The translations under genes and the position numbers were made by a program. Below, piece after piece: positions 12,264 through 28,416 of a DNA stretch of 64,000 bases. The stretch's first letter is position 1, and each line of letters begins with the position of its first letter. A model generated the notes under the pieces. It ran no database searches and had not been told where the DNA came from. It saw only the letters and a list, made by a program, of their open reading frames with translations. The DNA comes from an uncultured Gemmatimonadales bacterium. Lineage in GTDB: Bacteria > Gemmatimonadota > Gemmatimonadetes > Gemmatimonadales > GWC2-71-9. The stretch spans positions 256,001 to 320,000 of the forward strand of contig CAWJMT010000004.1 in NCBI GenBank assembly GCA_963844035.1. Reading direction: 5' to 3'.

Positions 12264-13141
12264 TCACGCCTGCCAGCGATGCACGCGCTCGAGGATCTCC
12301 GCGCCGCCGATCTCGCCGCACAGCGCAGCCAGCTGGGGACGTGAGGCGCCGCGCCACTCGAGGTCCTCGACTCCTTCCCGCAACGGCACGTCGGTCCTCA
12401 GCGTAGCCAGCCGGCGGTACAAGAGGGCGGCGTCCCGGTGTTCCCGCAGGCTCGTCGCGAGGGCAGCGGCACCACGCACCGCGACCTTCCACCCTCGCGC
12501 GTCGTCAGGAATCGCCTCGAGGTGCTCATAGTGAGCAAGCACCGTCGCGGCGGATCGTTCGCCCCAGCGGGGCACACCAGGGAAGCCATCCGCATTGTCC
12601 CCGACCAGGGCCAGCCAATCAGGGATCGACCCGGGCCCGACGCCGAACGTCGTCGCGCACGGCCGCTTCGTCGCGCGTGCGGCGCCGCATCCGGTCGAGG
12701 CATACAACGCGGTACCGCGCACGCATTGGGTCAGATCCTTGTCGGGCGAGCAGATGACGACCTGCTCGACCTTGGGGCTTAGCGGCCGCTTGGGCCGCCG
12801 CGCTGGCCAATGCGTCGTCAGCCTCGAACTCGACCATCGGCCACACTACCACACCCAGGGCTCCCGACGGCGCGCTCGGCGAGGGCGAATTGCGCGAGCA
12901 GCTCCGGCGGCACGCCCTCGCTGGTCTTGTATCCCTCGAATAGCTCGTTGCGAAACGACTCGATGACGTGGTCGAATGCGCAGGCGACGTGGGTTACGCC
13001 GTCCTCGCGCAACAGGGAGAGCAACGACCGCATCAACCCGAGGGTCGCCCCGACCGGAGTGCCGTCGGGAGCCTCCGTCGCGGGGGCGCCGAAATGGGCG
13101 CGGAACAGCTCGTACGTCCCGTCCACCAGGTGCACACGCAT
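12264..13141 (-). CDS. Standalone 5'-3' exonuclease (flap endonuclease, PolA N-terminal-like); frameshifted
   Basis: HLVDGTYELFRA, FD..SFRN..YK, EFEADDALA, SPDKDL, LALVGD.ADGFPGVP.WG H3TH motif across three frames. Confidence 0.85.
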
Positions 13142-13153
13142 CGATCGAGTCCG

Positions 13154-14696
13154 CTACACCTCCGCCGGCTCGACATTGTTTACCCGCCGCGTCCGCATCA
13201 CCGTGACGACGGCGAGGATCAAGACGACGATCGGCGCAGATGCATGCGACGAGGCGAAACGCGTCGAGAAACGCAAGTTTGGCCGGGTTCAGCAGCTCCA
13301 CCCCAAGGTGTCCAGGGAGACGCTCGGCCACGGCGACGGCGCCGCCGAGCGTGGCCCGCGCCGCCTCCGCCGCTTCCGGGGGAACGCCGGCGGGAATACC
13401 GGCCGCCATGCGGCCGCGATAGAGCGCGGTGCCGATGCTTCCGAGCACCGCGATGCCGAGCGCGCCTCCCAGCTCCGAACTAGTCTCCGAGATGGCTGAC
13501 GCCGCGCCGGCCCGCTCGACGGGAGCGCTCCCGACGATCAGGTCGGTCGCGAGAATGACAACGGGAGAAATGCCCAGAGAGTAGATGATGGACCCGACGA
13601 TGAGCACCGCGAGTCCGGCTTCATCCACCTGTGTGAGTATTCCGAACCCTGCGGCCGCGACCACCAATCCCCCCGCGATGGCGTGCCCCGGTCCCACGCG
13701 GCGCGCAAGCACCGGAACCACGAAGGAGCCCGCGACGAACGCCAGCATCGAAGGCACCGTCGCGAGCCCCGCTTGGAACGGCGTCAGACCGAGCACGAGC
13801 TGGAGGTATTGTGCGATGAAGATGTAGATCCCAAACGCCACGAGCGTCCCAACCAAAAACACCGCCAATGCCCCGCTGAAGCCGGGAGCCCGAAACAGCC
13901 TCAGGTCGATCAGCGGGTCGGCCAGCCGTTGCTGGCGCCGTGCGAAGGCGGCCCCCGTGGCGACACCGGCCACGATCGACAGCGCCGGCATCCATGCCAA
14001 CCCGTCTTCGGCAATTCGCTTGAGCCCGTAGATCACCAACAGCACGGCGGCGAGGGACATGGCTGCGCTCGCCAGATCCGGCCGGCCTGCTTCGGGGTCG
14101 CGAAACTCCGGTAGCAGTACGGGCCCCACCACCAGCAGCAGCAGCATCACCGGCACCCCCAACAGGAACACCGCGCCCCACCAGAAGTACTGCAGCACGA
14201 TCCCGCCCAGTAGCGGCCCGATCGCGCCACCGATCGAGTAGCTCGTGACCCACACACCAATCGCGAACGTCCGCTGCCGCGGGTCGAGAAACATGTTGCG
14301 AATCAGGGATAGCGTGGATGGTGCGAGCGTGGCGCCGGCGAGGCCGAGCACGGCGCGGGTCGCGATCAGCATCGCGGCGCTGGTCGAGAATGCGGCGACG
14401 ACCGAGGCGACACCGAACGCGGCGGCGCCGATCAACAGGAGCCGCCGCCGGCCGATCCGGTCCCCCAACGTTCCCATGGTGATGAGCGAACCGGCCACGA
14501 GGAAGCCGTAGATATCGATGATCCAGAGCAGCTGGGCGCTGCTCGGCTGGAGATCGGCGCTGAGCCGGGGGACAGCGAGGTTCAGCACCGTGAGGTCCAT
14601 GGAATAGAGGACGCACGGCAGCGCGATAACGGCGAGGCCGATCCACTCCCGCTGCCCGGCCCGGGGCGGGGTGTCGGGCGGTGCGTCGACCTGCAC
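13154..14696 (-). CDS. MFS drug:H+ antiporter, 14-TMS DHA2 (SmvA/QacA-like); frameshift near C-terminus
   Basis: SMDLTVLNLA, GTLGDRIGRRRLL, GPLLGG, PLIDLRLF, ELGGALG; GTG overlaps sigma-factor TAG (TAGTG). Confidence 0.9.
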
Positions 14697-15967
14697 TAGG
14701 CGCCGGGCTCCACGCAGGCTGCCGCGCGCTCGAGCAGCAGTGCGCGCTCGCGGGTGTTGCGGGTCAGGGCCGCCGCGCGCTCGAACTCGACCCGCGCCTC
14801 AGCCGCACGGCCCACCTTCAGCAGCAGATCGGCGCGCACGCTCGGCAGCAGGTGGTAGCCCGCAAGCTGCGGCTCGGCTGTCAACGCGTCGACCAGCTCG
14901 AGACCCGCCGCGGGGCCGAACGCCATGCCAACCGCAACCGCACGATTGAGCTCCACCACGGGCGACGGTGCCAGCTGTGCAAGCACCGCGTACAGGGCAG
15001 CGATACGCACCCAATCAGTTTCCGCCGCCGTGCGCGCCCGGGCGTGGCAGGCGGCGATGGCGGCCTGCATCGTGTAAGGCCCAGCGGCCCCGCCGAGGGC
15101 CTCGGCGCGCTCGAGCGCCGCAAGCCCGCGATGCATGAGGACGCGATCCCAGCGCGCGCGATCCTGGTCGAGCAGCAGCACCGGCTCCCCCGACGCGCCG
15201 ACCCGGGCTCGCAGTCGCGACGCCTGAATCTCCATCAGGGCCACCAAGCCATGCACCTCCCCCTCCTCGGGAGCGAGCTCGGCGAGAATGCGGCCGAGGC
15301 GGAGTGCCTCCTCGCACAGCTGGGGCCGTATCCAGTCGTCACCGGCCGTCGCCGAGTAGCCCTCGTTGAAAATCAGATAAATCACCTGGAGTACGGACGC
15401 GAGGCGGGTGGCGAGCTCCGGCCCGCGCGGAACCTCGAACGGGACACCAGCCGCCGCGAGCGTCCGCTTGGCCCGGACGATCCGTTGGGCGACCGTCGGC
15501 TCGGAGGCGAGGAACGCACGCGCGATCTCATCGGTGGTGAGGCCACCGAGCAGGCGGAGGGTGAGCGCGACCCGCGCCTCGGTCGGGAGCACCGGATGGC
15601 AGGCCGTGAAGATGAGCCGCAGGAGGTCGTCGCCGACGGTGTCGTCGATTGCGGCGGCGAGGTCTTGCTCGGGGCTCGCCTGCCGGCTCTCGAGCTCCCG
15701 GCCGAGCTCTTCGTGCTTGCGGTCGAGGAGCTTGCCGCGGCGCAGGACGTCCAGGGCCCGGTGTTTCGCCGTGGCCATGAGCCAGGCGCCCGGATTGTCC
15801 GGGATTCCCGAGGTGGGCCAGCGCTCCAGCGCCGCGAGCAGCGCATCCTGTGCGAGATCCTCGGCCAAACCGACATCACGCACCATCCGCGCGAGACCCG
15901 CAATCAACTTCGCCGACTCGATCCGCCAGACGGCGTCGATCGTGCGATGGGTGTCGGTAGCCGTCAC
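14696..15967 (-). CDS. ECF42-type sigma factor with C-terminal TPR extension
   Basis: AEDLAQDA, DDLLRLIFTACHP, AQRIVRAKR, IYLIFNEGY, DQDRARWD, QAAIAACH, SPVVELNRAVA. Confidence 0.92.
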   Translation of the reverse strand: MTATDTHRTIDAVWRIESAKLIAGLARMVRDVGLAEDLAQDALLAALERWPTSGIPDNPGAWLMATAKHRALDVLRRGKLLDRKHEELGRELESRQASPEQDLAAAIDDTVGDDLLRLIFTACHPVLPTEARVALTLRLLGGLTTDEIARAFLASEPTVAQRIVRAKRTLAAAGVPFEVPRGPELATRLASVLQVIYLIFNEGYSATAGDDWIRPQLCEEALRLGRILAELAPEEGEVHGLVALMEIQASRLRARVGASGEPVLLLDQDRARWDRVLMHRGLAALERAEALGGAAGPYTMQAAIAACHARARTAAETDWVRIAALYAVLAQLAPSPVVELNRAVAVGMAFGPAAGLELVDALTAEPQLAGYHLLPSVRADLLLKVGRAAEARVEFERAAALTRNTRERALLLERAAACVEPGA

Positions 15968-16023
15968 GGCTACCAATCACATCATCTTCCCCCGCTCCTG
16001 CAAGAGGACTTCGTTCGCGACGC

Positions 16024-16443
16024 TTACCGCTTACCCTCCGACTGTTGGCGAAGGCGCTCCTCCTGTGCCTTGAGCTCCGGCGTCAAGTTGGCGCCGAAGT
16101 CGTCCGCCTCGAACACCTGGCGTATCTCGATCTCGGCACCGGGTCCGAACGGCGCCCGCTTGAGCCATTCGACCGCTTCTTCCTTCGACTTCACCTGCCA
16201 CAGCCAGAAGCCGGCGACCAGTTCCTTCGTCTCCGCGAACGGCCCATCGATCACCGTCGGCTTCCCGGTCGTGAAACGCACCCGCGCCCCTTTCACGCTC
16301 GGATGGAGCCCCTCTCCCGCCAGCATCACCCCGGCCTTCACCAGCTGTTCATTGAACCGGGTCATCTCGGTCAACTCCTTCGTGCTGGGCAGGACGCCCG
16401 CCTCGGTGTCCTTGTTGGCCTTCACCAGGACCATGAATCGCAT
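16024..16443 (-). CDS. YciI/DGPF family protein
   Basis: MRFMVLVKA, GEGLHPS, DGPFAETKELVAGFW, EIEIRQ. Confidence 0.92.
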   Translation of the reverse strand: MRFMVLVKANKDTEAGVLPSTKELTEMTRFNEQLVKAGVMLAGEGLHPSVKGARVRFTTGKPTVIDGPFAETKELVAGFWLWQVKSKEEAVEWLKRAPFGPGAEIEIRQVFEADDFGANLTPELKAQEERLRQQSEGKR

Positions 16444-16505
16444 TGTCGCATCTCCCAGGAGTTTGGTTAGCCGAAGCCCGGGCTGATCCCTGGCTCCACA
16501 TCTAC

Positions 16506-16630: not shown

Positions 16631-16981
16631 ATGCGGCAGGTCAGAGCCCGTCACGCTTTCCTTTTACCCGTCGCGACAGTGTTACTCGCGGTCTTCTCAA
16701 CGCAGGGGTGCACCAGGTGGAATGAAGTCAACGGGACGAAGAGTCTGGCCGCCGAGCCCCACGGGACGGTCCGCCTCACGCTGACGGGGGACGCCAAGAA
16801 GGTGGTCGTGAAGCACCCGACCGTCGTCGGCGACAGCGTCGTTTGGAAGTCCCCCGAGCCGGGCAGTGTACACGTGAGTCAGGTGGCGTGGATCGAGGCA
16901 CGCGGATTGGATCCGATTGCGACGGGCTTCTTCGCCCTGGCGGGCGTCACGTTCATCCTGGTTAAGACCCTCCGCGACTAG
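16631..16981 (+). CDS. Hypothetical lipoprotein with C-terminal hydrophobic segment
   Basis: SD AGGAG; signal peptide ending TQGC. Confidence 0.6.
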   Translation: MRQVRARHAFLLPVATVLLAVFSTQGCTRWNEVNGTKSLAAEPHGTVRLTLTGDAKKVVVKHPTVVGDSVVWKSPEPGSVHVSQVAWIEARGLDPIATGFFALAGVTFILVKTLRD

Positions 16982-17664
16982 CGGGGTTCTACCACCCGCG
17001 CCCCCCAGCTGACGATCGCCTCGACGATCGTCTGCACCACGTCGGCGTCGGTCGTTCCCGATCGTTTCAGCACCTTGAACGAGTGATCCCCGCCTTCTAT
17101 TAGATAGAGCGTCGCGCGCGCGCCGAGGCGTTGCACCACCGGCCGCAGCAGCTCCAACCCAGCGAACTCATCCCGCGTACCCTGTAGAAAGAGCATCGGC
17201 ACGGCGACGCGCTCGAGGTGGTCGGCCCGCGTGGTCCCCGGCCGGCCGGGCGGATGGAGTGGGAAGCCGAGGAATGCGAGCCCGCCGACGCCGGGCAACG
17301 GAGCTTCCGCCTGCGCCGACGACGTCATGCGTCCGCCGAACGATTTCCCTCCGGCCAGGAGCGGCAGCCCGGGCGCCACGCGCGCCGCTTCGGCCACCGC
17401 GGCTCGCACGGCGGCCGTCGCTACAGCGGGGGTGTCGGGTCGTCTGGAGCGCCGCTCCATGTAGGGAAACTGATACCGCAGCGTCGCAACTCCACGCTCC
17501 GCCAGGCGGTACGCGAGCACCTCCAGAAACGCATGCCGCATGCCGGCGCCCGCGCCGTGCGCGAGCACGTACAGCAGCCGCGCATCACTGGGCCGGACGA
17601 GCAATCCCGAAACTGCGCCGGCCTCGCCCACCGTGAAGGTCAACTCTTGCACCGATGTACTCAT
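16978..17664 (-). CDS. Alpha/beta hydrolase (KANL3/Tex30-like)
   Basis: LAHGAGAGM, GGKSFGGR, GFPLHPPG, QGTRD, GDHS. Confidence 0.88.
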   Translation of the reverse strand: MSTSVQELTFTVGEAGAVSGLLVRPSDARLLYVLAHGAGAGMRHAFLEVLAYRLAERGVATLRYQFPYMERRSRRPDTPAVATAAVRAAVAEAARVAPGLPLLAGGKSFGGRMTSSAQAEAPLPGVGGLAFLGFPLHPPGRPGTTRADHLERVAVPMLFLQGTRDEFAGLELLRPVVQRLGARATLYLIEGGDHSFKVLKRSGTTDADVVQTIVEAIVSWGARVVEPR

Positions 17665-20218
17665 TACTCCACGCGGGCTTGGAGCCGCTCGAGTGCGCTC
17701 ACGAGATCGGGCTTCACCTGGAGCACCGGGAGGAGCGGGTCATCCTTGACCTTCTTCATCCGAGCGGGCGCGTTCGCGATCGTGAACTTGCGGATGTCGA
17801 GCTTCGGGGTGATTTCGCTCCATTGCAGCGGCATGGATACCGGCGCGCCGGGGAGCGGGCGCACGCTGAATGGCGCTACCAACAACCGGCCGTGACCGTT
17901 CTGGATCCAGTCGAGATACACGCGCGGGCCGCGTTTGCCGACCTGGCGCGTAATCGTGGCGATGTCCGGGAGCTGCGCGGCGATGACGCGGGCCAGCAGG
18001 CCGCCGAGCGCGCGGGTTTGCTCGTAGGTGCACTGCCGCCCGAGGGGCAGCAGGACGTGCAGGCCGGTGGAGCCACTGCTCTTGATGAAGCAGGGGAGCT
18101 CGATTTCGTCGCACAGCGCGTGAATCGCCCGGGCGACGGTGACGACGTGGCTGAACGGCGCCTCTTTCGGATCGAGGTCGAGAATACACCAGTCGGGGAG
18201 CTCGAGCGTCGCGACCCGGCTCCCCCACACATGCAGCGGGATCGTGCCCAGGTTCGCCAGATAGAGCAGCGACGCTTCGTCGTCGCATACGAAGTAGTCG
18301 ATGTCGCGCTTGGTCTCCTCGCTCCACATCCGCTCGGTGCGCAGCCATTCCGGCGCGAACGGCGGCGCATCCTTCTGAAAGAATGACTTTCCCTGAATGC
18401 CGTCGGGGAACCGGGTGAGCACCACCGGCCGGTCTTTGAGATAGGGGAGCAGCCAGGGTGAGATCGCGCGGTAGTACGCGACGAGATCGCCCTTGGTGTA
18501 CTTGTCCTCGGGCCAGAAGACCTTGTCGAGATTCGAGAACTTCACCTCTCGGGGAAGTGGGGAGTGGGACGAGGGACGGGTGGGTACCTCGGGCTCCGTC
18601 CGTCCCGTTCCCCTTCCCCCGTCCCCCTTCCCGGCATTTCACACTCCGCCACCGGCTTGTCATCCCGAAACCTGAGGAACACCGGCTGGCGGAGCAGCCC
18701 TTCGTCGGTCCACTCCTTGTAGCGCACCTCGACGACGAGCTCGGGCTCGACCCAGGAGTGCGCGTCGTCCTTGGGCGCGGGCCCGGCGAACGCCGGTGTC
18801 GTCGCGGCGCGCGCCTCGAGCTTCGCCGCCACCTCTTTGAGCTGGGCCGCATTGAAGCCGCTCCCCACACGGCCCGCGTACATCAGTTTCCCGTCCGCGA
18901 ACCCGCCGAGGTGGAGCGCACCGAAACCGCCGCGCGATCCCTTGGGGCGCGTGAAGCCGACCACCACGAAGTCGCCGGTGCGGTCCGCGCGGATCTTGAG
19001 CCAGTCGGCCGAGCGGCCGGCGCGGTAGGTCGAGTCGGCGCGCTTCGCGACGATCCCCTCGAGGCCGAGCTGGACCACCTGCTCGTAGAGCGCTTCGCCT
19101 TTCGTCTCGAAGTGTTCGAGGTAGCGGAGCGCGCCTGTGGGCGGGATGATTTTTTCGAGGATGCCCTTGCGCTTGACGAGCGGCAGCGGCCGGAGGTCCC
19201 AGCCGTCGAACGCCAGGAGATCGAAGAGGTACAGGGTGGCCGGGTTCTCCACGGCGGCGCGGCGGATCTCGGGCACACGGCTCAACCGGGCGCGATTCTG
19301 GAGGCGCTGAAAGCTCGGATGGCCCGCGTCGTCCAACACGACCACTTCCCCGTCCAGGACTAGCCGCTCGTACGGGAGCGCCGCCAGCGCGCGGGTGATT
19401 TCCGGGAACGCTGCCGAGAGGTCGTGACCGTTGCGGGAAATAAGGAGTGCGCCGTCGTTCGCACGCGCAGCACGCAGCCGATACCCATCGAGCTTGAGCT
19501 CGAAGATCCATCCCGCCTTGCTAAATGGCTGTTCGCGCGTCTCCGCCAGCATCAGCTCGGCTTCACGCACCGGCAGCGCGCGGCGCGGCGCTTTGAGCCG
19601 GGTGAGCTCCTGCTTGATCTTGGGAACGAGCGTCTGACCGTCGCGCAGGGCCTCGACGGTGAGCCCTGACAGGACGGATTCCTCTGGAAACGTTGCCCCG
19701 GTCGCGACGTAGCCGTCGCGCTCCTTGATGAGGAGCCACTCCTTGTCACCCTTCTTGAGCTTCACCAGGGTCCACTTCCCGTGGAGCTTGTAGCCCTTGA
19801 GGTCGAAGAGGAGCTTCCCCTTCTTCATCCCCTCATGCGGGTCCTCGAGGGGCACCCAGGCGCCGCGGTCCCACACGATCACGCCGCCGGCCCCGTAGTT
19901 GCCTTCCGGGATGATGCCTTCGAAGTCGCCGTATTCGATGGGGTGGTCCTCGACTTTGACGGCGAGGCGCTTGTCCTTGGGGTCGGCGGAAGGTCCCCTG
20001 GGGACGGCCCACGACTTGAGCACGCCGTCCATTTCCAGGCGCAGATCGAAATGCAGGTTGCGGGCGGCGTGCTTGTGGACCACGAACAGGCCGCCCTCGA
20101 GCGCGCCCGTGGTCGCGGCCGCCGCTACCTTCGCGCCGGGCTCCGGTGTACGATCAAGGGAACGCTTGGCGCGGTAGGCGCTTAGCGCATCCGGCGCGGA
20201 CTTCTTGTTTGCGCCCAT
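17664..20218 (-). CDS. ligD: NHEJ DNA ligase D (phosphoesterase-ligase-polymerase); split by a frameshift in the linker near 18600
   Basis: HAARNLHFDLRLE/KSWAVPRGPS (PE); ELKLDGYR, EGIVAKR, WLKI (ligase); SNLDKVFWP, RFPDG, LDLDP, KSSGSTGLH, APFSVR (Pol). Confidence 0.92.
18550..18632. repeat. Purine-rich then pyrimidine-rich short tandem repeat palindrome inside the ligD linker
   Basis: ggggaagtggggagtgggacgagggacggg ... cccgtcccgttccccttcccccgtcccccttccc. Confidence 0.55.
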
Positions 20219-20249
20219 GGAACGGGAATCTTATCATAGGCGCCCTATG
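20219..20249. promoter_or_regulatory. Compact bidirectional ligD/ku promoter region
   Basis: Overlapping -10 hexamers TATCAT (+, 20232-37) and TAAGAT (-, 20228-33), each 9 nt from its ATG; inverted repeat CATAGG-cgc-CCTATG. Confidence 0.5.
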
Positions 20250-21113
20250 CCTGCACACTCGATCGGATCCGCCACGCTCTCGTTCGGCCTCGTCTCGGTG
20301 CCGGTCAAGATGTTCTCCACCGGCGAGTCCTCCGCCGCCGTCTCCTTCAACTGGCTCCACAAGAAGGACGGCGCACGCCTGAAGCAGCAGTACGTCTGCT
20401 CGAAGGACGGGGAGAAGGTCGAGAAAGACGAGATGATCAAGGGCTACGAGTTTGAGAAGGGGCGGTACGTCCAATTCACCACGGACGAGCTCAAGACGTT
20501 GGACGAAAAGGGCACGGGAGCGATCGACGTCCAGGAGTTCGTTCCGGCCAAAGAGGTGGACCGCCTATACCTCGAGAAGTGCTACTTCCTGGGACCTGAG
20601 AAGGGCGGTGAGCGAGCCTACCGGCTGCTCTCCGAGGCCTTGAAGCAGACCGGTCGCGTGGCCGTCGGGCAGTACGCCGCGCGCGGCAAGCAGTACGTCA
20701 TTTCAATTCGCCCGCACGAAGGCGGCCTCGTGATGGAGCAGCTGCGCTACGCCGATGAAGTCCGTTCGATGGCCGAATTGCAGATTCCAAAGATCGATGT
20801 GAAGAAGCCCGAGCTCCAGCTCGCGGTGCAGCTGCTCGACCAGGCGGCGTCGGAGACGTTTCACCCCGAGAAGTACGAGGACAATCAGCGGAAGCGGGTG
20901 CTCGAACAAATCCAGCGCAAGGTCGATGGACAGGAGATCACGGAGGAGCCGACCGAGGCTCCCAAGACCCAGATCCTCGACTTGATGGAGGCGCTCAAGG
21001 CAAGCCTGGGGAAGGGAAAAGGGGCCGCCGGCGATCGCAAGCCCGCCAAACGGGTCGAAGACAAAGCTGCCGCGAAGACGATCCCGCTGAAGCGCAAGGC
21101 GGCTTCGCGCTGA
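20247..21113 (+). CDS. ku: NHEJ DNA end-binding protein Ku
   Basis: LSFGLVSVPVK, IKGYE, FVP, LRYADEVR, FHPEKYED, LDLMEALKASL, basic tail. Confidence 0.95.
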   Translation: MPAHSIGSATLSFGLVSVPVKMFSTGESSAAVSFNWLHKKDGARLKQQYVCSKDGEKVEKDEMIKGYEFEKGRYVQFTTDELKTLDEKGTGAIDVQEFVPAKEVDRLYLEKCYFLGPEKGGERAYRLLSEALKQTGRVAVGQYAARGKQYVISIRPHEGGLVMEQLRYADEVRSMAELQIPKIDVKKPELQLAVQLLDQAASETFHPEKYEDNQRKRVLEQIQRKVDGQEITEEPTEAPKTQILDLMEALKASLGKGKGAAGDRKPAKRVEDKAAAKTIPLKRKAASR

Positions 21114-21123
21114 CGGCAGTCGT

Positions 21124-21957
21124 TTGAAAGGCTACTCATCCAAAGACGTCGCTAAGCTGTTGGGACTGACCGTCGCGCAGGTGCGGGCCTTCGCGCGCGA
21201 CGGTTTTTTGACGCCGCGACGCGGGACACGCGGCGATGTGCGGTTTTCCTTCCAGGACCTGGTCATCCTGCGCGCGGCGAAGGGACTCGTGGCCGCGCGC
21301 ATCCCCACCGGCCGCATCCATCGCGCTCTGAAAAAGCTGCGGCACGAGCTGCCGCGCGGCCGCTCGCTCGCCGAGCTGCGCATCGTGGCCGAGGGCGACC
21401 GCATCGTGGTGAGCGACGGGCTTGCCGCGTGGAACCCGGAATCGGGGCAGCTCAGTCTCGACTTCGCGGTCTCGGACCTGGCGACCAAGGCCGCACCCAT
21501 CGCGCGGCGGACGGCGCAGGCGGCGCGGCGCGCCGAGGGTGATTTCGACGCCGCCGGCTGGTACGAGCTGGGGTACGAGCTCGAGGCGGTGGCCCCGGTG
21601 GAGGCGCGCGACGCCTATCGGCGCGCGCTCGAGCTCGACGCGCATCACGCCGACGCGCACGTCAACCTGGGCCGGCTACTGCACGAGCAGGGGTTGGTAG
21701 AGGAAGCGGAGCGGCACTACCGGGAGGCGCTGCGCGAAAGTCCCGATCACACCACCGCCGCCTTCAACCTCGCGATCGCCCTCGAGGACCTACACCGCCC
21801 GGCGGATGCGATCGAGGCGTACCGGGCGGCACTCGCAACGGACCCGCGGCTCGCCGACGCGCACTACAACGTGGCGCGGCTGTACGACAAGGTGGGCAAG
21901 AAGGCGGCGGCGCTCCGGCACCTGTCGATCTATCGACGGCTCACCGCAGACCCGTAG
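21124..21957 (+). CDS. MerR-type HTH plus TPR-repeat protein
   Basis: YSSKDVAKLLGL..FSFQDLVILR; internal GQLSLDF; TPRs (DAHVNLGRLL, AAFNLAIAL, DAHYNVARL). Confidence 0.85.
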   Translation: MKGYSSKDVAKLLGLTVAQVRAFARDGFLTPRRGTRGDVRFSFQDLVILRAAKGLVAARIPTGRIHRALKKLRHELPRGRSLAELRIVAEGDRIVVSDGLAAWNPESGQLSLDFAVSDLATKAAPIARRTAQAARRAEGDFDAAGWYELGYELEAVAPVEARDAYRRALELDAHHADAHVNLGRLLHEQGLVEEAERHYREALRESPDHTTAAFNLAIALEDLHRPADAIEAYRAALATDPRLADAHYNVARLYDKVGKKAAALRHLSIYRRLTADP

Positions 21958-22752: not shown

Positions 22753-23080
22753 GTGACCTCCAGCACACTTCCGACCACCAGACCGCGCCGCGCGCTGGTT
22801 CCATGCGCTCTCGGACGAAACGCGCCTCGAGATCGTCGAGATGCTGTCGCATGGGGAGCGCTGCGTCTGCGAGCTGCAGAACTCGCTCGACGCGGCCCAG
22901 TCCCGGCTCTCCTTCCACCTCAGGACGCTCAAAGACGCCGGCCTGGTCACCGATCGCCGCGAGGGACGGTGGGTCTACTACACGCTCAACCGCGACGCGT
23001 TGGACGAGGTCGCGGCGTTCGCTCAGGCGGTTAAGCCGGGAAAACACGCGGGGAGCTGCGCCCGGGCATGTTGCCCCTGA
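22753..23080 (+). CDS. arsR: ArsR repressor (frameshift near N-terminus)
   Basis: FHALSDETRLEI, ERCVCEL, SRLSFHL..LKDAGLV..RREGRW.YY, C-terminal CARACCP. Confidence 0.9.
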
Positions 23081-23097
23081 TTTCTTGTCGCATACAC

Positions 23098-23113
23098 ATC
23101 AACATTTGTTGAT
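23098..23113. promoter_or_regulatory. Second ArsR-like operator upstream of arsM
   Basis: ATCAAC-attt-GTTGAT, same ATCAA-N6-TTGAT core as operator 1. Confidence 0.7.
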
Positions 23114-23125
23114 TAAGGAGGGCAC

Positions 23126-23944
23126 ATGAGCGATGCGCAGATCAGAGATACGGTGAGGGAGCGGTACGCGCAGGCAGCGTTACGGGTGGTTGCTGGTGAG
23201 CGCGGCAGCTGTTGCGGCACCGGCACGGGGACCTGCGGGTGCGATCCCGTCAGCTCGGATCTCTACGATGCCGGTGAGACCGTCACGCTTCCCGAGGGTG
23301 CGGTCCTCGCCTCCCTCGGCTGCGGCAATCCGACGGCTCTGGCGGAGCTCCACGAAGGCGAAACGGTGCTCGACCTGGGGTCGGGGGGTGGGATCGACGT
23401 ACTGCTCTCCGCCCAGCGCGTGGGCCCAACCGGGAAGGCCTACGGCCTGGACATGACCGATGAAATGCTGGCGCTCGCCCGCGAGCACCAGCGTCAGGCG
23501 GGCGCCACGAACGTCGAGTTCCTGAAGGGAGAGATCGAGCGCATCCCGCTGCCCGATGCCTCGGTGGACGTCATTATCTCCAACTGCGTCATCAACCTCT
23601 CGGCCGACAAGAGCCAAGTGCTGCGGGAAGCGTTTCGCGTTCTCAAACCGGGCGGCCGGTTCGCCGTGTCGGACGTCGTGGTACGCGGTGAGGTTCCGGC
23701 CAGCGTGCGGAGCAGCATGGAGCTATGGGTCGGGTGCATCGCGGGCGCCCTGCCTGAGGAGGAATATGTACGCCTGCTCAGAGCGGCCGGCTTCGAGGAC
23801 GTCGGGATCGAGCCGACGCGCGTCTACGCATTCGAAGATGCGCGCGCCTTCCTGGCCGGGGCCGGCCTTGACGCCGAGGTGCTGGCGCGGGAGGTCAGCG
23901 GCCGGATCATGGGCGCGTTCATCCGCGCTCGGAGGCCGGCATGA
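23126..23944 (+). CDS. arsM: Arsenite S-adenosylmethionine methyltransferase
   Basis: N-terminal [35 protein letters not shown]. Confidence 0.94.
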
Positions 23945-24615
23945 GAGGGCCGCGGGTAGCCGCCGAGGTGGTCGGCACGTTCATGCTGGTATTCATAGGA
24001 GGCGGGGCGGCAGCCGTCGACAACTGGTCGCACGGCTCTGTGACCTCGGTCGGGATCAGTTTGGCGTTTGGGTTCGTCATCGTCGCGGGGGTGTACGGGT
24101 TGGGCCACATCTCCGGAGCGCATTTCAACCCGGCCGTGACAGCAGGCTTTTGGCTCAGTGGCAAGTTTCCGCGCGCCGAAGTGCTCCCCTACGTGTCCGC
24201 CCAGATTGTTGGATCGCTGAGCGCCTCCTTGCTGCTGCGGGCGCTGCTCGGCGCGTCCGCCCAGGCCGCCTCCACGATCCCCGCAATCGGTGTAGGGCGA
24301 GGGTTGGTGGTCGAGGTTGTCCTCAGTTTCTTTTTGATGCTCGTGATCATGGCGGTCGCCACGGACGCACGTGTTGCTGGAACGGTGGCGGGCCTGGCCG
24401 TGGGCCTCACTGTGGCGTTCGAGGCGCTGATGGGTGGGCCGTTGAGCGGCGCGAGCATGAACCCCGCGCGGTCGTTCGGCCCCGCGCTCGCGACCGGGAC
24501 GTGGATGGGGCACTGGATCTATTGGATTGGGCCACTGGTTGGCGCAGCCCTCGCCGTGGGCGCATACGACTATTTGCGAAAAGGCACGTCCCATGACTAC
24601 CGCGCCGGATCGTAG
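23941..24615 (+). CDS. MIP family aquaglyceroporin (AqpS-like arsenite channel)
   Basis: HISGAHFNPAVT and SMNPARSFGPA; located inside ars operon. Confidence 0.9.
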   Translation: MRGPRVAAEVVGTFMLVFIGGGAAAVDNWSHGSVTSVGISLAFGFVIVAGVYGLGHISGAHFNPAVTAGFWLSGKFPRAEVLPYVSAQIVGSLSASLLLRALLGASAQAASTIPAIGVGRGLVVEVVLSFFLMLVIMAVATDARVAGTVAGLAVGLTVAFEALMGGPLSGASMNPARSFGPALATGTWMGHWIYWIGPLVGAALAVGAYDYLRKGTSHDYRAGS

Positions 24616-25102
24616 GTTCCGCCTGCTGTTCCTGTGCACCGGCAATTCCGCCCGGAGCCAGATGGCGGAGGCTCTACTGAATATGAAAGGGAAAGGACGG
24701 TTTGAGGCGGCGAGCGCCGGGTCGCGTCCGGCCGCCCGGGTGAATCCTTACGCGATCGACACGTTGCGCGACTACGGCATCCCGTGGGCCGGCCATCCGC
24801 CGCGCAGCGTCGACGGGCTCGAACGCGAGCCGTGGGACTTTGTGATCACGGTGTGCGATCGGGCGAAGGAGTCATGCCCGATCTTCCCCGGCCAGCCGGT
24901 CCTGGCGCACTGGGGTATGCCCGACCCCGCGGAAGTGGAGGGGGACGACGCGGCAAAACGGGCCGCGTTCCGAGACGCGTTCGTGCTCATCAGCCGCCGG
25001 ATCGACCTGCTCCTGGAGCTCCCCCTCAGCAAGCTCAGTCGCCTGGCGCTCGAAGCGCGGCTACGCGCCATCGGAGGCACGGTCACCCAATCAGCTCCTT
25101 GA
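24593..25102 (+). CDS. arsC: Arsenate reductase, LMW-PTP / thioredoxin type
   Basis: CTGNSARSQMAE, VITVCD..ESCP.FPG, HWGMPDPA. Confidence 0.92.
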   Translation: MTTAPDRRFRLLFLCTGNSARSQMAEALLNMKGKGRFEAASAGSRPAARVNPYAIDTLRDYGIPWAGHPPRSVDGLEREPWDFVITVCDRAKESCPIFPGQPVLAHWGMPDPAEVEGDDAAKRAAFRDAFVLISRRIDLLLELPLSKLSRLALEARLRAIGGTVTQSAP

Positions 25103-26302: not shown

Positions 26303-27853
26303 ATGCCGGCCGACCAGAGTGGTCCCCGCCTCTCGAAATCCCGTTTCATGGCCGGCCTCCAGTGTCACAAGCTGCTGTGGTGGAAGGTGCGCGAGCCCTG
26401 GGCTCCCGAGCTCGAGCAGACCCCCGACCACGAGGCCCGGTCAGAGGCGGGAAAACGCGTCGGTGAGGTAGCGCGCGAGTACGTGCCCGGCGGTGAGTTG
26501 GTCCCCTTCAAGCCCTACGAAATCGAGAACAAACTCGCCGCCACGCAGCGGCGCTCGGGACCCGCCACGCCGGGTGCTCTACGAGCCGGGTGTGGCCGCG
26601 AGCGACGCGTACGCCGTGGTGGACATTCTCGAGCGGCGTGAGCGGGGCTTCGGGCTGATCGAGGTGAAATCGAGCATCGACGTGAAGGCCGAGCACATCC
26701 CCGACGTCGCGATGCAGACCTACACCCTGCGTCAGAGCGGCATGACGGTCGAGCGGGTCGAAGTGATGCACTTGAACCGCGAGTGCCGCTATCCCGACCT
26801 GTCGAACCTGTTCGTGCGGCGGGACGTCACCCCGGAGGTCGAGGCGTACCTCCCCGACGGTGCCCGACGCGATCGCCGCGCAGGTCGCGGCCCTCGAGGG
26901 TCCCCTCCCCCAGGTACCGATCGGCGACCACTGCTTCGAGCCGCACGAATGTCCGTTCATGAAGCGCTGCTGGCCCGAGTGGCCGGCCGACCACGTCAGC
27001 ACGTTGTACGTGATGCGGCGCCGTGCGCTCGACCTCGAGGCCAAGGGTTATCGCACGCTGCACGATCTCCCCGGCGACCTGAAACTCAACGCCATCCAGG
27101 TGCGGCAGGTGCGCGCCGTGCAAGCCGGCACGCTCGTCGTGGAAGAGTCGCTCGCCGAAGCACTCGTCCCGTTTCAGGGGCCGCTGGCGTTTCTCGATTT
27201 CGAGACGGTCAGTCCCGCGATCCCGGTGTGGAACGGGTGCCGCCCGTGGGACCAGGTGCCGGTCCAGTTCAGCGTGCACGTGCAGCAGCGCGGCGGCGGC
27301 TACGCGCATCATGAGTGGCTGGCCGAGGGCGGGGCGGACCCGCGCCCGGCGCAGGCCGAGCGGCTGGTGGCGGCTTGCGCGGAAGCGCACGCCATCGTGG
27401 CGTACAACTCCTCGTTCGAGCGCAGCTGCGTCCGGCTACTCGCGGCGGCAGCTCCCGGGCTGGCGCGGGAGCTCGGCCTGATCGAGCTCAAGCTCGTGGA
27501 TCTGCTTCCGGTGGTCCGGAACCACGTGTACCACCCGCAGTTCGCCGGGAGCTTCTCCCTCAAGAGCGTCATCCCGGCGCTGGTGCCGGAGGTGACCTAC
27601 GACGATTTGGAGATCAGGGATGGCGCCGCTGCCACGCTGGCCCTGTGGCGGCTGGTGTTCGAACCCGAGGGTCAGAGCCCGCGAGAGCGCGTCGCTAAGC
27701 GGAGGGCGCTGCTCGCCTACTGCGAGCGGGACAGCTGGGCCACCGTGAAGTTGTTGGAGCGGCTACGCGTGCTGGCCGGCGGCCTGCCGGTCGCCGCTCC
27801 GCGCCCCACTGCGACGCCGCCGGGGCGGGCGGCAGCTGGATCTGGGATTGTAG
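26303..27853 (+). CDS. DUF2779 protein (PD-(D/E)XK RecB-like nuclease plus RNase H-like domain); frameshifted
   Basis: LSKSRFMAGLQC; DILER..IEVKSS; C..P..CPF..C; FLDFET..P..QVP.QFS.H; YNSSFE; GSFSLK.V; YCERD; probable end QLDLGL*. Confidence 0.82.
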
Positions 27854-27858
27854 GGAGG

Positions 27859-28416
27859 CTATTTCGCCCGTTCCAGGTACACACCCTGCCGCGGGTCAAC
27901 CCGCACCCGGTCACCTTCGGCGACGAAATCCGGAACCTGCACGGTGACGCCATTGGACAGCTTGGCGGGCTTGGTGCTCGCGGTTTTCGTGGCACTGCGC
28001 ATGACGGGCGACGTTTCGACCACATCGAGCTCGACCACCGAGGGCAGCTCGATCGCGATCGGGCGACCATCGAGCCATTCGACCTTCACGACCATCTCCG
28101 GCTGGAGCCAGGGGCCCGCGTCCAGCACCGTGTCGTCGTCGAGCGTATGCTGGTCGTAGTTCTCCCGGTCCATCACATGGACGCCGCCGGCGTCGCGGTA
28201 CAGGACCTGGAACTCCTTGGTGTCGAGCCGGGCTTCCTCCATAAAGTCGGAGGCGTTGAGGCGCGTGTCGAAGGTGTTCCCGTTGAGCAGATTGCGGAAC
28301 CGCACCTGGACGAACGCGCGCAGATTGCCGGGGGTGCGGTGGGTGAAGTCCATCACCCGGCAAGGCTGGCCGTCGATGATGAGGACGTGCCCCTTGCGGA
28401 CATCGGTTGCCTTCAT
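27859..28416 (-). CDS. efp: Elongation factor P (PGN loop type)
   Basis: HRTPGNLRAFVQ, KPAKLSNG.TVQVP.FV.EGD.V.VD, YLER. Confidence 0.93.
   Translation of the reverse strand: MKATDVRKGHVLIIDGQPCRVMDFTHRTPGNLRAFVQVRFRNLLNGNTFDTRLNASDFMEEARLDTKEFQVLYRDAGGVHVMDRENYDQHTLDDDTVLDAGPWLQPEMVVKVEWLDGRPIAIELPSVVELDVVETSPVMRSATKTASTKPAKLSNGVTVQVPDFVAEGDRVRVDPRQGVYLERAK

Follow-up and report, generated by a model that had tools for sequence, protein, structure and literature searches.

Is bacterial non-homologous end joining (NHEJ), usually pictured as the work of two proteins, Ku and LigD, accompanied in some bacteria by a third protein encoded next to Ku? This question is raised by a locus in a window of 64,000 nucleotides (nt) from an uncultured Gemmatimonadales bacterium (the whole stretch analysed here; contig CAWJMT010000004.1 of assembly GCA_963844035.1, positions 256,001 to 320,000), in which ku is followed on the same strand, after a gap of 10 nt, by a gene whose product combines a MerR-type winged helix-turn-helix (wHTH) domain with tetratricopeptide repeats (TPRs), and in which ligD is divergent from ku. 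A single copy of each of these three genes was found in the genome, and the nearest homologs of the wHTH/TPR protein (hereafter the partner protein) carry the label Gemmatimonadales. The layout had been described in a first-pass annotation made from the sequence alone, and it is confirmed by the coordinates and by matches to the TIGR02772, MerR_1 and TPR models. The locus is real and conserved: it represents bacterial NHEJ with an unstudied, optional partner.

The evidence that carries this conclusion comes from gene order. A scan of GTDB species genomes retrieved 453 relatives of the partner protein, and the best 80 of these, a set biased towards close kin, include 78 loci in which ku is the immediate upstream gene on the same strand, one in which it lies about 2 kb away and one in which it is out of view; for loci titled outside Gemmatimonadota the arrangement is direct in 18 of 20 (Acidobacteriota, Myxococcota, Planctomycetota and one Proteobacteria). 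Less biased counts are provided by phylum samples of 151 genomes. The Gemmatimonadota sample yielded 27 matches, one of which was weak, confined to the HTH and dropped, and the remaining 26 all lie directly behind ku. The Myxococcota sample comprises 46 carriers and 59 genomes with Ku, 37 having both; its 47 matches divide into 22 directly behind ku, 6 at a distance of up to 3 kb, 10 at other sites of genomes that have Ku and 9 in genomes without a Ku match, and this Ku search may have missed divergent copies, since 79 genomes matched the polymerase (POL) domain of LigD. Forty-four Acidobacteriota genomes matched, and the 30 strong matches include 26 direct neighbours of ku (counting one unpublished row, G348), one gene divergent from ku, one located elsewhere and two in genomes without Ku. 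On plasmids, Ku is matched by 600 records and the partner protein by 41, all of them from Burkholderiales, with the partner gene directly behind ku in 29 of 30 among the matches listed. The distance between the two genes has a median of 13 nt, with six overlaps of 4 nt (116 loci). The proposal that an uncharacterised factor is tied to NHEJ is therefore borne out by the enrichment of homologs next to ku across phyla.

The partner gene follows Ku rather than LigD, and mostly one Ku lineage. In the five plasmid loci that were opened, ku always adjoins the partner gene, with ligD upstream, convergent or out of view, and in Variovorax the Ku linked to ligD has no partner and a second Ku has one. 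A quick tree of 116 Ku rows, built from every row of loci L123 and later plus a hand-picked selection from the earlier ones, places all 53 partner-adjacent Ku rows inside a single 77-row branch (support of 96 in the Shimodaira-Hasegawa-like approximate likelihood ratio test, SH-aLRT). This partner-linked lineage is without Trp7, the Trp being present in 34 of the 35 other Ku rows, and has Q47 in 69 of 69 rows. Among Myxococcota genomes with Ku of the partner type, 33 of 35 carry the partner, compared with 3 of 23 that possess only another Ku (one genome was left unplaced, 4 of the 33 hold the unlinked subfamily discussed below, and kin are not independent). In Acidobacteriota, the partner is carried by 24 of the 25 genomes with a full-length copy of that Ku lineage. 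The stricter statement that only the Trp-less Ku has a partner holds in the tree sample and was rejected, as it fails for Sinorhizobium meliloti and for two Acidobacteriota loci in which a divergent partner homolog stands behind a Trp-type Ku. As to the originally suggested link to Ku and LigD alike, the tie to Ku stands and the tie to LigD is weaker.

The partner is nonetheless optional: it has often been lost where Ku and LigD are retained. Eighty-two Gemmatimonadota genomes possess Ku of this type (at least 346 bits), and a one-protein query detected the partner in 26 of them; a profile search of about 2 kb downstream of ku found no partner in any of the 40 sampled Gemmatimonadota non-carriers. 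An obligate component was rejected on these grounds, as the partner was not found in 56 of the 82 genomes. The "third component" of the first-pass annotation thus survives as a conserved neighbour of ku and not as a required part of the machinery.

The partner protein matches MerR_1 (PF13411) at residues 4-71 with 41.4 bits (cut-off 21.6), and its TPR matches span residues ~160-270. An AlphaFold2 model based on 82 sequences (mean predicted local distance difference test score, pLDDT, 93.4; predicted template modelling score, pTM, 0.64) comprises a winged HTH (1-75), strands (86-90, 93-97, 102-103 and 110-111), a helix (116-136) and TPR helices (143-275). The best-kept residues among 138 homologs include F43, D45, L55, W103, G108 and Q109, and the conserved Asn and acidic residues of the TPRs (Table 1) are presumably located on the groove face, according to TPR position rules. 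The N-domain is structurally most similar to the DNA-binding domain of RacA (Z 9.9, root-mean-square deviation (rmsd) 2.0, 67 residues aligned), TnrA (Z 9.6, rmsd 2.4, 78 aligned) and GlnR (Z 9.1, rmsd 1.7, 65 aligned), and the HTH exhibits sequence matches to GlnR, RacA and CarH. The strand region is also spanned, with middling Z, by Rv2018 (Z 7.5, rmsd 3.6, 104 aligned) and by the C-terminal domain of Rv1828 (Z 6.8, rmsd 3.5, 90 aligned, over model residues 2-115), both of which we take to be dimers. Among the Foldseek matches listed for the full model there are only TPR proteins, and no Foldseek match of the N-domain reached E 0.001; an Atlas search with a homologue returned MerR_1 or unnamed clusters only, and a further protein search returned short, mostly partial forms.

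The family also has longer and shorter relatives. Some longer homologs of 406-456 amino acids (P0070, P0078 and P0093) have methyltransferase Pfam matches besides MerR and TPR, which may reflect either gene fusion or an artefact of assembly. TPR-less relatives of ~155 amino acids exhibit the same HTH-strand layout (L283 2774-3259, L284), and one of them is encoded directly before a predicted diguanylate cyclase gene; the 153-aa forms align over the whole N-domain, with 52-55 bits across profile positions 2-125.

With respect to DNA recognition, Arg27, Arg30 and Tyr31 of Listeria GlnR contact operator bases, according to the accessible part of PMC9249791. By alignment with an inferred 3-residue numbering offset, these residues correspond to positions 18, 21 and 22 of the partner protein. 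Among the 138 homologs R21 is kept in 126, position 18 is variable (Ala 53, Gly 14, Arg 13) and so is position 22 (Ala 45, Ser 36, Arg 19). The loss of base-reading residues at positions 18 and 22 suggests that the HTH may bind the DNA backbone rather than an operator.

What could such a protein do behind ku? We propose, with a rough probability of 0.45, that the partner assists bacterial end joining as an optional accessory factor, with its TPR groove placed on Ku and its wHTH on nearby DNA. According to this scenario, ku and the partner gene would share one transcript, the acidic, Asn-lined TPR groove would bind the basic C-terminal extension of Ku (RKPAKR), the GQxxLxF strand would be structural, probably a dimer contact, and the HTH would bind DNA with little sequence specificity. 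The outcome would be a tether that holds Ku near broken ends or bridges them, and that changes how efficiently or faithfully repair proceeds, although repair would not require it. [quoted passage not shown] It is tempting, if still more tentative, to regard the partner as a representative of an old and widespread family of dedicated Ku cofactors, i.e. non-enzymatic DNA-binding TPR adaptors that would grip the Ku tail, co-evolve and co-transfer, and tune synapsis or threading.

Two lines of evidence bear on the postulated contact. A complex of the Ku dimer with the partner protein, modelled with 88-row alignments and three controls, obtained a score of 0.36 (runs 0.36, 0.12, 0.38), compared with 0.00 for the best control; the runs share at least 30% of contacts, and the pLDDT of the partner is at least 74. 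Of the solved pairs, 116 of 157 attained the mark used, as did 2 of 215 mismatched pairs, counts that hold only roughly here, and because at scores of 0.60 or less it was attained by just 18 solved pairs and by both mismatches, we regard the result as a weak pass. The second line concerns the Ku tail. An RKPAKR-type motif occurs in 34 of 69 rows of the partner-linked Ku lineage and in none of the 35 other Ku rows; in Gemmatimonadota, by a pattern fixed before 40 new loci were seen, it is found in 24 of 36 Ku rows of carriers versus 1 of 48 of non-carriers (one broken ku excluded). A looser motif, chosen after seeing the data (21/26 versus 8/40), was not used.

Several observations weigh against the accessory-factor reading. 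One of the three complex runs scored 0.12, and the interface was not returned. Among independent pairs no significant tail correlation is seen (five pairs on starred branches, one or two concordant and none opposite, p 0.5), the length of the Ku tail taken as a trait is likewise not significant, and the Ku of one Myxococcota carrier subgroup is without the tail motif. Conservation of R21 and of the wing arginines is a trait shared with real regulators. Nine of the 46 Myxococcota carriers match neither Ku nor LigD-POL (small searches with no positive control), and seven Ku-less carriers form, together with four whose ku is unlinked, a clade of their own (support 100; it includes L159, L161, L163 and L170-L173), located mostly beside response-regulator and NAD-kinase genes, as named by eye. 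The members of this clade keep the hairpin motif and the TPRs, which suggests that the family can function in the absence of Ku. Linkage is also mostly missing from a weaker Acidobacteriota subfamily, in which 2 of 14 full-length members lie behind ku. Finally, in three close Myxococcota genomes (L167-L169) ligD and the partner gene are divergently oriented without an intervening ku, and the sole ku is of the Trp type and lies elsewhere, an arrangement that looks like recent loss of ku.

Some of these observations would suit a dimeric MerR-type transcription factor, whose TPRs would sense a protein signal (perhaps Ku bound to ends) and which would control ku/ligD or a damage or stationary-phase regulon. 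The N-domain has TnrA and GlnR among its best structural matches, the TPR-less 153-aa relatives align with it in its entirety, and the Ku-less carriers fit a wider role. In the accessible parts of the respective papers, McdR, a member of the MerR family, is described as connecting DNA repair with cell division in mycobacteria (PMC9040748), and the regulation of S. meliloti ku2 is stated as unknown (PMC6379672). Yet the upstream regions of ku speak against such a regulator, which we consider less probable than the accessory factor. Inverted repeats with arms of at least 6 nt are not enriched there (11% of 157 loci versus 14% in shuffles), no palindrome is shared by the 70 nt upstream of ku in these loci (the commonest palindromic word pair occurs in 12), and the inverted repeat CATAGG/CCTATG at the ku start of the window, tried as an operator candidate in the ligD-ku spacer, is not conserved. 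The interval 20219-20249, where the first-pass annotation had led us to look for an operator, thus contains no conserved one and exhibits a predicted promoter of the leaderless type, which overlaps the ligD start and has its -35 box inside the ligD coding region. In 80 of the 157 loci the ATG of ku is preceded at 5-10 nt by TAnnnT, and 15 have a Shine-Dalgarno-like site, which suggests leaderless transcription of ku; back-to-back, apparently leaderless starts of ligD and ku are a layout conserved in many relatives. Furthermore, the base-reading positions are not conserved, and some members associated with Ku (L174, L175 and S. meliloti) have a degenerate HTH or wing. A general DNA-protection or stress protein that merely shares the ku promoter and never touches Ku or LigD would account for intact partner genes in genomes without Ku or LigD matches and for the many Gemmatimonadota genomes that have the same Ku type and no detected partner, and the alpha/beta hydrolase that travels with the locus indicates that the operon gathers other genes too. 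We regard such a passenger as improbable: the partner remains beside ku where ligD has a different position, and of two Ku paralogs it accompanies one, the gap to ku is small, and both the weak pass of the complex model and the BRCT fusion in S. meliloti (a match to the LigA C-terminus, E about 0.002) point to the repair machinery.

The least probable of the explanations is the one suggested by the first-pass annotation on the basis of a QLxLF-like motif, namely that the protein links Ku/LigD as an adaptor to the beta sliding clamp, using a hexameric clamp-binding motif. The clamp gene dnaN was located in this genome. The segment GQLSLDF occupies residues 108-114 (nt 21445-21465), and QLSLDF fits the consensus Q-aliphatic-x-[LM]-x-[FL] given in the accessible part of PMC11139829; all 138 homologs have Q109, and each has F or L at position 114. 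QLSLDF alone is weak evidence, because clamp-like pentamer or hexamer patterns arise ~0.07 times per 277 residues in six-frame open reading frames (ORFs) of this genome. The full hexamer pattern is present in only 56 of the 138 homologs (90 when position 4 may also be Phe), with Leu at position 2 in 28, Leu or Val at position 3 in 77 and Phe at position 4 in 49. The segment follows a conserved W-x-P-x-S-G turn in a predicted beta-hairpin, where residues 110-111 are modelled as a strand, likely pairing with 102-103. The 153-aa relatives without TPRs have a similar GQ-x-x-hydrophobic strand, and so does the S. meliloti homolog, in which it ends in V; the solved structures of Rv2018 and of the Rv1828 C-terminal domain align through the segment, albeit with middling Z. 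In the monomer models confidence drops after residue 111 (block pLDDT 65 and 52 for residues 111-120), so that the strand and its hydrophobic residues probably pack in trans, as a clamp ligand would. The GQxxLxF strand is probably a dimer contact, which we favour over a clamp site. The clamp idea itself is doubtful.

Table 1. Positions in the 64,000-nt window of the NHEJ genes, the partner gene and their features.
Feature	Position	Strand	Remarks
alpha/beta hydrolase (PF20408)	16978-17664	-	directly after ligD; second conserved neighbour
ligD, polymerase (POL) part	17664-18545	-	ORF 18545-17664
ligD, phosphoesterase and ligase part	18542-20218	-	ORF 20218-18542
predicted leaderless ku promoter	20209-20246	+	TTGCGC 20209-20214, 17 nt, TATCAT 20232-20237, 9 nt, ATG
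ku	20247-21113	+	288 aa; TIGR02772; lineage without N-terminal Trp, invariant Q47
RKPAKR motif, basic C-terminal extension of Ku (aa 264-269)	21036-21053	+	candidate TPR ligand; correlation only
partner gene: MerR-type wHTH / beta-hairpin / TPR protein	21124-21957	+	277 aa, TTG start
MerR-type winged HTH (aa 1-75)	21124-21348	+	R21 and wing arginines conserved; positions 18 and 22 variable, mostly small
W-x-P-x-S-G-Q-x-x-[LF]-D-F hairpin and strand (aa 103-114)	21430-21465	+	contains the QLSLDF clamp-like motif
about four TPR repeats (aa 143-275)	21550-21948	+	conserved N181/N215/N249, R184, acidic E154/E221/D222/D245/E255

As for the known components of the locus (Table 1), Ku passes the NCBIfam model TIGR02772 with 274.8 bits (cut-off 150) and its frame ends with a stop at 21113. 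The start codons of ku and of the divergent ligD are separated by 28 nt. LigD has the domain order phosphoesterase-ligase-polymerase (PE-LIG-POL), and all three domains score above their NCBIfam cut-offs (TIGR02777, 215.9 versus 144; TIGR02779, 313.6 versus 227.75; TIGR02778, 235.3 versus 214.7). The gene appears as two overlapping ORFs, with a change of frame in a G-rich linker with G homopolymer runs at about 18595-18640. The split is probably a frameshift error of the assembly, because LigD is a single ORF in 55 of 55 related loci that show both parts; a genuine split is disfavoured for the same reason. Public contigs left the junction unsettled, and no read run held more than 0.20 of the words. 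Other genes of the window also seem frameshifted or split (12264-12722 with 12818-13141; 26508-27900), which suggests indel errors in this assembly. Contigs from RNA runs cover parts of ku at high identity and leave most of the partner gene without depth, and they indicate neither absence of expression nor its level.

Among the neighbouring genes, the PF20408 hydrolase directly follows ligD in 35 of the 52 related loci whose sequence extends far enough to show it, and a homolog with 40% identity closes the ligD2-ku2 locus of S. meliloti; it is a candidate for a fourth NHEJ-linked gene. In Cupriavidus and Caballeronia plasmids (L126 1-2157, L127 4131-4841) the ku-partner cassette adjoins a gene for an SOS-response-associated peptidase, and in one such plasmid an error-prone polymerase lies beside the cassette as well. 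Farther away in the window, genes for a small ORF, a methyltransferase, an aquaporin-family protein (MIP) and a low-molecular-weight phosphatase stand in a row at 22803-25102 (+), which we take, by its appearance, to be an ordinary arsenic-resistance operon, and a YCII-domain gene followed by an extracytoplasmic function (ECF) sigma factor with a DUF6596 extension is located at 14696-16470 (-).

The family has a member in a well-studied organism. In S. meliloti 1021 the order is ligD, ku, a 361-aa partner homolog and a PF20408 hydrolase, and by gene order on the supplementary map of PMC6379672 these genes are ligD2, ku2, SMb20687 and SMb20688; in the accessible part of that paper, SMb20687 appears once, as a label on the supplementary gene map only. 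Its homology to the partner protein begins at the FSFxD helix and continues through the C-terminus (HHalign probability 99.1, E 8e-19, 215 columns). It carries an additional BRCT-like segment at its N-terminus that weakly matches the C-terminus of LigA (E about 0.002), and it stays behind ku2 although its HTH is a MerR remnant with a shortened wing. No such partner adjoins S. meliloti ku1. In the literature covered by our search, which left most subscription papers outside, we found no paper on the partner gene, and supplements beyond that coverage could list it among ku neighbours; the keywords TPR and MerR gave no match in the accessible parts of PMC9226535, PMC11936186 and PMC7719229.

If the proposed role is true, a conserved non-enzymatic third protein would alter the two-protein picture of NHEJ for many soil bacteria, from Gemmatimonadota, Myxococcota, Acidobacteriota, Planctomycetota and Pseudomonadota, and a family of Ku cofactors would be a bacterial counterpart of the accessory NHEJ scaffolds of eukaryotes. 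A laboratory model is at hand in S. meliloti, where a homolog immediately follows ku2, the gene of the Ku responsible for most of the joining. Genome editing that relies on NHEJ in Cupriavidus and rhizobia may be concerned as well.

How does the partner compare with the systems already known? Classical MerR regulators have a long coiled-coil helix and an effector domain right after the HTH. The partner shares with them the N-terminal winged HTH, as indicated by the PF13411 score and the structural matches; unlike them, it has no coiled coil after the HTH, which is followed in the model by strands (86-111), a helix and TPRs, and no conserved inverted-repeat operator is found at the adjacent ku promoter in 157 upstream regions. 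The minimal MerR-type proteins TnrA/GlnR, RacA, BldC and CarH have the same wHTH fold, to which the partner adds the beta-hairpin and the TPRs; two of the three base-contact residues of GlnR are lost, and no operator was found. Proteins of the McdR (Rv1830), FtsR and Rv1828 type share the MerR-type HTH with a short C-terminal extension; the FtsR model is weakly matched by 47 of 86 members of the partner family (best E 8e-5), and a likeness to McdR itself is presumed. In contrast to the partner, these proteins are without TPRs and are not linked to ku, and McdR binds a defined palindrome, according to the accessible part of PMC9040748. The clamp motifs of the Hda and Pol IV type resemble QLSLDF as far as the written consensus is concerned; the segment of the partner differs in being placed inside a predicted hairpin and in drifting within the family. 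SMb20687 shares with the window gene the HTH-strand-TPR homology, the place directly behind ku and the PF20408 hydrolase in the locus; it differs in its N-terminal BRCT-like segment, its shortened wing and its Trp-type Ku, the window protein starting at the HTH. Finally, with two-component NHEJ, built of a Ku homodimer and LigD (PE-LIG-POL), the window locus shares Ku and all three LigD domains, and its Ku has the minimal C-terminal helix and the basic extension, as described in the accessible part of PMC4889933; it differs from that system by a distinct Ku lineage (no Trp7, Q47) and by a conserved third gene in the ku operon.

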